Below, one piece after another: positions 18,158 through 19,028 of a stretch of 64,000 nucleotides of DNA. A program made the translations under genes and the position numbers. This DNA is from Tannerellaceae bacterium. GTDB taxonomy: Bacteria > Bacteroidota > Bacteroidia > Bacteroidales > Tannerellaceae. The number at the start of each line of letters is the position of its first letter. The first letter of the stretch is position 1. The notes under the pieces were generated by a model. That model had not been told where the DNA came from. It was given only the letters and a program-made list of their open reading frames with translations, and did not search any database. Location of the stretch: positions 1,647 through 65,646 of the forward strand of contig JAJPZJ010000169.1 of NCBI GenBank assembly GCA_021204405.1. Direction: 5' to 3'.

Positions 18158-18527
18158 CCTGTTCCCCGCGCAGGCGGGGACCGCATCAGAACAGCCGGAA
18201 ATCTTCTATATTTTAGAACTGAAACAGGTAGTTTTAGTGCGATCCCCGCCTACGCGGCAGGGCTGTTAAATTCTTTTCTCTTCAGTCCTGCAAGGACGGC
18301 ATATCCTAGCCCGGTACGCAGTGCCGGGTGGTTGATATGGATCTTTTTTGAGTGCTGTAAGTACGGCATAAAATATACATGGGATCAAATTTCTATTATG
18401 TCGTACTTACAGCACTCCCACACTTATATTCCTAACTACCCAGGGCTGGTGCCCTGGGCTGGGATAGGACGTCCTTGCAGGACTACATATAGGAGAACTT
18501 AACAGTCCTACGCCTGCGCGGGTAACA
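18158..18527. repeat. family A REPIN-like element, copy A3, interrupted by family B copy B1
   Basis: The left arm CCTGTTCCCCGCGCAGGCGGGGACCGCATCAG starts at 18158. The right arm is split: GCGATCCCCGCCTACGCG (to 18256), then B1, then GCCTGCGCGGGTAACAAGG (18512-18530). Confidence 0.8.
18257..18511 (+). mobile_element. family B MITE, copy B1 (inverted relative to B2/B3)
   Basis: Termini are GCAGGGCTGTTAAATTC and GAACTTAACAGTCCTAC (inverted). Flanked by a 9-bp direct repeat, GCCTACGCG (18248-18256) and GCCTGCGCG (18512-18520). Nested hairpins inside. Confidence 0.8.
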
Positions 18528-19028
18528 AGGTCTTTTTATTCTTCCAGCAGTGCTTTATTTCAGCTTTTATGCGGATATACAACATACAAAGATTGAGGAT
18601 GGAAAAAATCACTGCAGTACAATACAAATGGAAAACAAGGGGTATAAGGGCAATCTCGGCTACCACGATCAGGTAGTTAGGATGTTTCAGGTATTTATAA
18701 GGGCCTTTTTTACCAACGGGGTATTGGGTATACGGTAGATCCTGGTGTTCCAGTATCTGCCCAGCGAACGGATGATCCAGATTTTTACCGCCAGCAATAG
18801 CAGGAACAGTTCGAATAACAGCATACTGCCCCGGGGTTCACCCCGCAGGAAATATTCTACGATCATCGCAAGGAAAAAACAAATATGCAGGATAACGATG
18901 AAGCGGTAATGGCTTTTGCCATATTCGACAGTACCTTGTTCTAATAGCCAGTGTTCATTTCGCTGTGAGATAACCAATTCGCCCAATCGTATGACAACAA
19001 GGAAAGAGATGTAAAACCAGAAGTTCAT
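18508..19028 (-). pseudogene. isoprenylcysteine carboxyl methyltransferase (ICMT) family protein, frameshifted
   Basis: MNFWFYISFLVV... multi-helix protein. The frame breaks at the T6 run 18706-18711. Adding one base gives ...PLVKKGPYKYLKHPNYLIVVAEIALIPLVF.... The last codons and the stop lie in repeat A3/B1 sequence. Confidence 0.7.

Follow-up and report, generated by a model that had tools for sequence, protein, structure and literature searches.

The A3/B1 locus and the anatomy of the insertion

The present study concerns two families of small repeats, A and B, in a 64,000-nt stretch of contig JAJPZJ010000169.1 of a Tannerellaceae bacterium (the window), and in particular the site at which one B copy, B1, interrupts one A copy, A3. 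The A family consists of repetitive extragenic palindromic (REP)-like arms, and B1 is a putative miniature transposable element with inverted repeats (MITE) of the ISAs1 family of insertion sequences (ISs). Both lie between a gene for an HU-like protein and a gene for an ICMT-family methyltransferase. The parts of the nested structure are as follows.

18160-18185, forward strand: left arm of A3, a 26-nt REP-like unit, TGTTCCCCGCGCAGGCGGGGACCGCA, with its own hairpin CCCCGC-GCAG-GCGGGG; A3 is one of five A copies
18186-18238, forward strand: 53-nt spacer of A3, which separates the inverted arms (alignment with A1, A2, A4 and A5)
18239-18256, forward strand: proximal portion of the right arm of A3, TGCGATCCCCGCCTACGCG; the left copy of the target-site duplication is formed by its final 9 nt (18248-18256), GCCTACGCG
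18257-18511, forward strand: B1, a 255-bp putative ISAs1-family MITE with the termini GCAGGGCTGTTAAATTC and GTAGGACTGTTAAGTTC, an inverted repeat that is nearly wholly self-complementary
18512-18520, forward strand: right copy of the target-site duplication, GCCTGCGCG, the same as in the A consensus and in the empty site of a relative (contig L002)
18521-18528, forward strand: remaining distal portion of the right arm of A3, GGTAACAA (consensus GGGAACAG)

The coordinates and sequences given for A3 and B1 by an earlier, sequence-only reading of this stretch matched base for base (17500-19200), and the anatomy of the nesting is directly observed. B1 interrupts the right arm of A3 at 18256/18257; its ends read GCAGGGCTGTTAA and, on the opposite strand, GTAGGACTGTTAA, and the flanking GCCTACGCG and GCCTGCGCG agree at 8/9 positions. 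The removal of B1 and one 9-mer restored a normal A arm, as that reading had claimed: the reconstituted A3 could be aligned along its entire length with the four further A copies identified in the window by a repeat finder (7747-7849, 11968-12064, 23861-23964 and 52286-52388, in addition to A3 at 18160), its right arm was identical to the reverse complement of its own left arm at 24/26 positions, and the element folded into a single hairpin (-32.4 kcal/mol, z -8.1). As 9-mers agreeing at 8/9 or more positions around a 255-bp interval occur at 3.1e-4 of window positions, this low chance rate and the restoration of the arm together indicate that the observation of B1 within A3 is real and not due to chance. 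Nor is the direct repeat a by-product of the palindrome, since GCCTGCGCG has CGCGCAGGC as its reverse complement. As a single event, the insertion is an ordinary one, namely a MITE nested in another small repeat.

A3 comprises two inverted REP units in a hairpin, each with its own palindrome, which is the organisation of a REP doublet forming a hairpin (REPIN). A reading of the A arms as CRISPR repeats was considered and rejected, since the match of GTTCCCCGCGCAGGCGGGGATCGCA (18162-18185, reverse strand, and all A arms) to CRISPR-DR28 was below threshold (25.9 bits, E 0.12) and no array is present.

B as a putative ISAs1-family MITE

B1 is non-coding: the only open reading frames (ORFs) inside it encode 40 and 56 amino acids, and a 52-amino-acid ICMT ORF overlaps its last 4 bases only. 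Its terminal inverted repeats, GCAGGGCTGTTAAATTC and GTAGGACTGTTAAGTTC, agree at 14/17 positions, a 54-nt inverted repeat is present at 80%, and the element folds into one long hairpin (-68.2 kcal/mol, z -13). B is shorter than 500 bp and has terminal inverted repeats, target-site duplications and dispersed copies, as is typical of MITEs. The sequence-only reading had proposed looking for a complete IS that shares these termini, and this search succeeded as far as the family level, the partner being matched at that level only. The 17-nt terminus of B1 was observed to be identical to the ends of three full-length ISAs1 elements (L082, L053 and L116). The first of these (L082:1099-2285, 1187 bp), whose left terminus is identical to that of B at 17/17 positions, contains a single 363-amino-acid ORF with PF13808 and PF01609, which scores 255 bits (cut-off 70) against NCBIfam NF033564, 'ISAs1 family transposase'. 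Members of the ISAs1 family generate direct repeats of 8-10 bp. Termini of the ISAs1 type (CAGGG...) are found on B1 as (G)CAGGGCTGTTAA, and the family member ISArsp11 has the left inverted repeat (IRL) CAGGGCTGATGCAAAGTCG (CAGGGCTGATGC...) and a 10-bp direct repeat (PMC6305408). Because its termini are identical to those of elements encoding ISAs1 transposases, and in view of the IRL of ISArsp11, B can be assigned on sequence grounds to the ISAs1 family as a MITE.

The repeat finder identified three B-related copies in the window, namely B1 and the following two.

39277-39543, forward strand: B2, an older copy of B whose left terminus is degenerate; its flanks are CAATCTATC (39268-39276) and CAAATCTATC (39544-39553)
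60840-61102, forward strand: B3, related to B by shared internal modules, with the different outer termini AGTCGTGGTCAGAAGATTTT

The flanking repeats that had been claimed for B2 are real but imperfect, since the 9-mer carries one additional A in the right copy. In metagenome X1, a contig joint (18178/18284) brings a second B3-type terminus into immediate contact with the left arm of an A element, which is cut after GCAGGCGGG; the subfamily with B3 termini may therefore be associated with A arms as well. The read depth over B in X1 was ~50-80x that of the flanks.

Outside the window, a scan of representative genomes, using the B terminus and first hairpin as the query, retrieved ten loci in one Tannerellaceae metagenome-assembled genome (MAG). 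The B copies of this MAG are ~272 bp long, end in GCAGGGCTGTTAAATTC...GAATTTAACAGCCCTGC, and lie between direct repeats that agree at 9/9 positions in L008 (GACTTGATC) and at 8/9 in L007, L012 and L013. In one of these loci (L017:7050-7700), a triple nesting was observed, in which an IS3-family element (IRL TGAAGTGCCCCCAAAAGTTGGAC, OrfA with HTH_Tnp_1) sits in the hairpin loop of a B copy that itself sits in an A-like arm. This IS3 element was considered as a partner of B, its OrfA lying directly behind a B end, and was rejected: because it has its own IRL (TGAAGTGCCCCC...) and splits the B hairpin loop, it represents a third-level insertion and not a parent. Genomes of this kind contain several REP-like families, and a further small palindromic repeat, of the GGGGATTACAAATCCCC type, occurs near the MAG copies of B (L014:1915-1940, L016:7375-7392 and L016:7517-7535).

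A scan of metagenomes with the 17-nt terminus as the query yielded 120 loci. Among them are MITE subfamilies, 139-326 bp in length, whose direct repeats are perfect (L028, L061, L062, L080, L086, L090, L098, L113, L115, L119 and L123), for example AGCAACGCT in L028 and GGCGTTGCC in L080. The cataloguing of duplications, which had been suggested as a check, thus revealed perfect direct repeats of 9-12 bp at more than 12 metagenome copies.

Regarding the length of the duplication, at hairpin targets the target base before the 9-mer is C and that after it is G, whereas G is the first base of the B element and C its last. Therefore, the duplication can equally be read as 9 bp or 11 bp. For B1, it is 9 bp if the terminal G/C is element-derived, and otherwise 11 bp, in which case the duplication is CGCCT(A/G)CGCGG and the element ends are CAGGG...CCTA. 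Across copies, the two models give 9-10 bp with the ends GCAGGG...CCCTGC, or 11-12 bp with the ends CAGGG...CCCTG, and B2 agrees with the GCAGGG-end model only (9 bp plus a 1-nt slip). The earlier claim that family B transposes with 9-bp duplications therefore stands with respect to transposition and to the direct repeats at other copies, but the length depends on the boundary model.

The relative age of the two elements was revealed by contig L002 from a 96%-identical relative, retrieved via the truncated HU-like protein encoded upstream of A3. In L002, the HU-like gene is followed by a complete A3 with the right arm GCGATCCCCGCCTGCGCGGGGAACAG, a single GCCTGCGCG and no B. This B-free allele supports the reading that B1 is younger than A3 and was inserted into a pre-existing arm. 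With respect to the left flank and the A element, L002 represents an empty site, but not with respect to the right flank; paralogous empty arms were found in the A copies of the window and in the MAG. L001, a separate NCBI assembly from the same species with 8 substitutions in 3410 nt, carries B1 with identical junctions. The assembly GCA_020860665.1 of this species is broken up at the repeats. One Logan contig of X1 covers the left junction of B1 with zero differences, and seven Logan contigs from other samples cover the right junction. In the X1 contigs both junctions were filled, and no joint bypassing B1 was found; additional searches of sequencing runs retrieved X1 alone. B1 was present in every closer sample reached and is thus fixed in this species. 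Contig L138, with an ICMT gene 81% identical to that of the window, was rejected as an empty site and informs on synteny only, since the HU-like fragment, A3 and B1 are all absent from it and its ICMT gene adjoins a gene for a KTKD-repeat lipoprotein; another contig, L139, stops shortly after ICMT. Because L138 lacks these three features, the segment 17800-18530 is variable among relatives.

The interior of B contains modules that match an Rfam RNA family, RF01687 (Acido-Lenti-1).

18284-18328, reverse strand: left subterminal two-hairpin module of B1, RF01687, 39.9 bits against a gathering score of 37
18439-18484, forward strand: right subterminal module of B1, likewise with two hairpins and forming an inverted pair with the left one, RF01687, 44.1 bits against a gathering score of 37
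60882-60926, reverse strand, and 61035-61079, forward strand: subterminal modules of B3, RF01687, above the gathering score

In B1, B3 and the MAG copies, these ~45-nt modules always occur as an inverted pair. No Acido-Lenti-1 hits were obtained in MITE subfamilies with B termini but other interiors, and no terminus strings of the ISAs1 type were found around the Acido-Lenti-1 seeds in the Rfam alignment file searched. Because sister MITEs are free of the module, the seeds are free of the terminus, and B1 folds as a single hairpin, Acido-Lenti-1 'small RNA' hits in Bacteroidales appear to mark copies of a mobile repeat. A 2026 Tannerella preprint speculated that Acido-Lenti-1 hits regulate protease genes (10.64898/2026.02.09.704811). 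For annotators, Acido-Lenti-1 hits in Bacteroidota would denote MITE copies.

Target preference, mechanism and competing explanations

In the MAG, all B copies with both ends visible (8/8) sit between a C-run and a G-run. Two types of target were observed: A-like arms, GTTCCCCGACTTGATCGGGGATCGCA, in four of the ten loci (L008, L012, L014 and L017), and a second hairpin family, AACCCCGGCGTTGCCGGGGCCTAAG, in L007, L010, L011, L013 and L015. In L008, the arrangement is GTTCCCC-GACTTGATC-[B]-GACTTGATC-AGGGATCGCA, and intact arms, GTTCCCCGACTTGATCGGGGATCGC, with a single 9-mer are present at L007:7517 and 7618. Both arms of A-like doublets were used as B targets (L008 and L012), and B occurs in either orientation within one target family (L010 versus L013). 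Because both arms and both orientations are represented and intact paralogous arms exist, the MAG insertions must be independent events.

An enrichment of the same motif was observed in the metagenomes, where CCCC was present at -16 to -9 in 28/117 unique flanks (24%) versus 1.1% of random positions, and CCC in 40/117 (34%) versus a background of 5%. The CCCC...GGGG frame, ~20-fold over background, contains more than 20 different loop sequences in several unrelated target families, and L027, L049 and L125 are among the insertions in palindromic targets. As the duplicated segment consists of the loop and the inner 2-3 stem pairs, the staggered cuts must be roughly symmetric about the dyad. In the window, which has 43% G+C, CCCC-N8-GGGG occurs five times, always in A arms; a transposase with this preference has almost no landing place there other than the A arms. 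These data suggest that the B family prefers CCCC-N8/9-GGGG stem-loops and that the landing of B1 in an A3 arm does not look accidental. The preference is marked but not absolute, as B2 demonstrates.

Based on this evidence, B1 is very probably an ISAs1 MITE that was mobilised in trans and inserted in the middle of the stem-loop of a pre-existing A3 arm, through a family-wide preference for dyad-symmetric targets. An ISAs1-type DDE transposase acting in trans would have excised or copied B1, and staggered cuts would have placed it at the centre of a GC-rich stem-loop, the A3 right arm. Gap repair would then have duplicated the loop and the inner stem bases, that is, the 9 bp GCCTGCGCG, or 11 bp should the terminal G/C stem from the target, and one copy of the duplication would subsequently have mutated from G to A. 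The choice of site would reflect the family-wide preference for CCCC-N8/9-GGGG, which in this AT-rich genome may be supplied almost only by REP-like arms. We infer that an autonomous element of this genome may have served as the partner and that the transposase itself reads the motif, be it the dyad symmetry of the double strand or a hairpin that has been extruded. In a wider sense, we somewhat favour the possibility that a widespread lineage of ISAs1 transposases and MITEs recognises CCCC-N8/9-GGGG stem-loops and inserts symmetrically across the loop, that REP/REPIN-like repeats serve it as natural landing sites, in Bacteroidales as well as in further phyla, and that Acido-Lenti-1 is, at least in Bacteroidota, a structural module of mobile DNA and not a stand-alone RNA gene.

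Several observations weigh against this interpretation. Neither the window nor the MAG loci yielded a gene for an ISAs1 transposase, and the assignment of the partner therefore reaches the family level only. The search for empty sites that had been proposed yielded the B-free A3 of L002 and the intact paralogous arms, but no orthologous site that is empty and retains both flanks was found in the sequencing runs, X1 or the seven other contigs of the species, all of which carry B1, and L002 itself diverges immediately to the right of A3, with GDSL lipase, Fic and AraC genes in place of ICMT. Two copies at non-hairpin sites (L053 and L123) fit the CAGGG-end model only, with 9 bp, and the length of the duplication is non-uniform. 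B2 lies in an AT-rich site and not in a stem-loop target, and about two-thirds of the metagenome flanks are without the motif. Finally, at least five copies have inverted flanks (L011:4617-4893, with GGCGTTGCC/GGCAACGCC; L027:1006-1308; L127:501-803; L057:497-668; L116:656-1994), for which simple insertion offers no explanation. These inverted flanks, as well as the flanks drawn from two different hairpin families in L049 and L098b/L125, may be due to recombination between copies in opposed targets or to assembler errors at a near-palindromic repeat of 270-300 bp.

Some of these observations would be expected if B inserted near-randomly with a 9-bp duplication and the hairpin preference arose from the sampling of a few amplified composite repeats. 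The ordinary AT-rich site of B2, the ~66% of unique metagenome flanks with no C-run at the expected position, and the sharing of one target family (AACCCCGGCGTTGCCGGGGCCTAAG) by several MAG copies agree with such chance landing. It is nevertheless improbable, given that one and the same CCCC...GGGG frame recurs with so many loops and in unrelated target families at ~20-fold over background, that both B orientations occur in one target family and both A-like arms were used, and that even partial data already pointed to an excess of stem-loops among B copies. Far less credible still is the assembly of B1 and the half-arms from different loci by homologous recombination or a mis-join. The metagenome contigs with chimeric flanks (L049, L098b and L125) and with inverted flanks (L011, L027 and L127) show that such joints exist, and the right flank of A3 differs between L002 and the window; the two half-arms, however, complete each other to a single arm in which exactly one 9-mer is duplicated, the junctions recur unchanged in the independent assembly L001, and Logan contigs span the left junction and, in seven cases from other samples, the right one.

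It is also very unlikely that B1 is primarily a structured small-RNA gene whose inverted copies reflect an RNA function. This explanation draws on the Rfam hits above the gathering score, two in B1 and two in B3, and on a covariation-based model that places the Acido-Lenti-1 motif among likely RNAs (Weinberg et al. 2010, PMC2864571). These hits, however, are inverted pairs within an element that has terminal inverted repeats, target-site duplications and many copies, as is also evident from the read depth over B in X1; MITE subfamilies with the same terminus and other interiors are without the motif, and the original seed members from Lentisphaera are located in tandem repeats of ~200 nt. A search of RNA runs found none that contained the sequence. 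The insertion of an ISAs1 MITE into a preferred stem-loop thus remains the explanation that we retain.

The nesting of B1 in A3 provides a relative dating of two repeat families, a clear instance of a mobile MITE in a Bacteroidales lineage that has received little study, and a sign of decay in the local ICMT/type III polyketide synthase operon. If it is true that ISAs1 transposases read a dyad-symmetric GC clamp, a sixth IS family and a new phylum would join the REP-targeters, the nested pile-ups of small palindromic repeats that break assemblies would be explained, and a compact, sequence-defined target rule would be available for testing in vitro.

Flanking genes, other features and related systems

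The genes that flank the nested repeats are listed below.

17948-18139, forward strand: truncated HU-like gene, 63 amino acids, convergent with ICMT; left flank of A3 and anchor for the empty-site search
18508-19040, reverse strand: decayed gene for an ICMT-family methyltransferase, with frameshifts in the T-run 18706-18711 and at ~18558-18560; its present stop lies inside B1
19033-20090, reverse strand: frameshifted type III polyketide synthase (PKS) gene, upstream of ICMT

In the HU-like protein, the Bac_DNA_binding match is limited to the first 38 of the 63 amino acids. The sequence-only reading held that the last codons and the TAG stop of the ICMT gene are supplied by A3/B1. This is literally true of the present ORF (18508-18666, reverse strand), which ends in ...TLLPAQA with the TAG in the last bases of B1, but the tail is an out-of-frame artefact of the second 1-nt deletion, at ~18558-18560. 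Intact ICMT homologues are 163-169 amino acids long and end in ...RIKTENKVLQEG or ...EDKALREEPEEAT before the stop; in the correct frame, the ICMT of the window ends in ...RIKAENKALLEE, and its natural TAA is the complement of 18536-18538, 8 nt outside A3. Because this natural stop lies outside A3, A3 and B1 are located in an intergenic spacer. Accordingly, the two repeats occupy the short spacer between two convergent genes, and the borrowed ICMT tail is a by-product of gene decay. In another strain, represented by the X1 contig, the ICMT indels are different ones, located at 18705 and 18848. Because the PKS gene is frameshifted too and the X1 indels differ, the ICMT/type III PKS operon seems to be decaying, rather than affected by sequencing errors.

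Other features of the window were observed apart from the A and B families. Tandem repeats of 33 nt at 17421-17552 (L138:919-1308) encode the W(D/E)KTK(D/E)G units of a secreted protein of small size; the number of repeats varies between relatives (107 versus 129 amino acids). At 31330-31401 (reverse strand), a member of the Bacteroidetes FopS small-RNA family was identified (75.6 bits), consistent with an origin in Bacteroidota. Two direct repeats of 300 nt, 100% identical, lie 480 nt apart (49292-49591 and 49772-50071).

Among known systems, B1 resembles the ISs and MITEs of the ISAs1 family (ISAs1, IS1358 and ISArsp11) in its termini, which start with CAGGGCTG, and, on the 9-bp reading, in a duplication within the range of the family. 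Full-length members carry a DDE transposase in a single ORF, whereas B1 is without a transposase, and its interior is a long palindrome of hairpin modules unrelated to the IS interior. A3, and not B1, is comparable with REPINs, the REP doublets mobilised by RAYT: it has two inverted arms of ~26 nt, each with a short GC-rich hairpin, ~50 nt apart, and it is ~100 bp in total, intergenic, free of an obvious target duplication and present in several copies per 64 kb. It differs in that the phylum is unusual for described REPINs and in that its arms are weakly CRISPR-repeat-like. With respect to RF01687, the modules of B score above the threshold, yet they constitute a transposon-internal inverted repeat in Bacteroidales, whereas Acido-Lenti-1 was described as a stand-alone gene in Acidobacteria/Lentisphaerae with seed flanks free of an ISAs1-type terminus (Weinberg et al. 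2010).

The closest parallel to the target preference is found in the ISs that insert into REPs. REP-targeted insertion is known in five families, IS3, IS110, IS4, IS256 and IS5, in Proteobacteria (Tobes and Pareja 2006, PMC1525189); the text of that survey does not mention ISAs1, and no report of REP or stem-loop targeting by the ISAs1 family or in Bacteroidota was found in the literature searched. Like B, the elements IS1397 and ISKpn1 (IS3), IS621, ISPpu9, ISPpu10 and ISPa11 (IS110), and ISRm22 (IS4) insert preferentially or exclusively into REPs, often between convergent genes (PMC1525189), and ISRm22 likewise encodes a DDE transposase of the PF01609 type. B differs from these elements in its ISAs1 family membership, its occurrence in Bacteroidota, the MITE nature of the inserting element, the 9-11-bp duplication covering the loop and inner stem, and a preference that is not absolute. 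Judged from these comparisons, B would be an addition to the known class of REP-targeting mobile elements and would extend this class to the ISAs1 family and to Bacteroidales.

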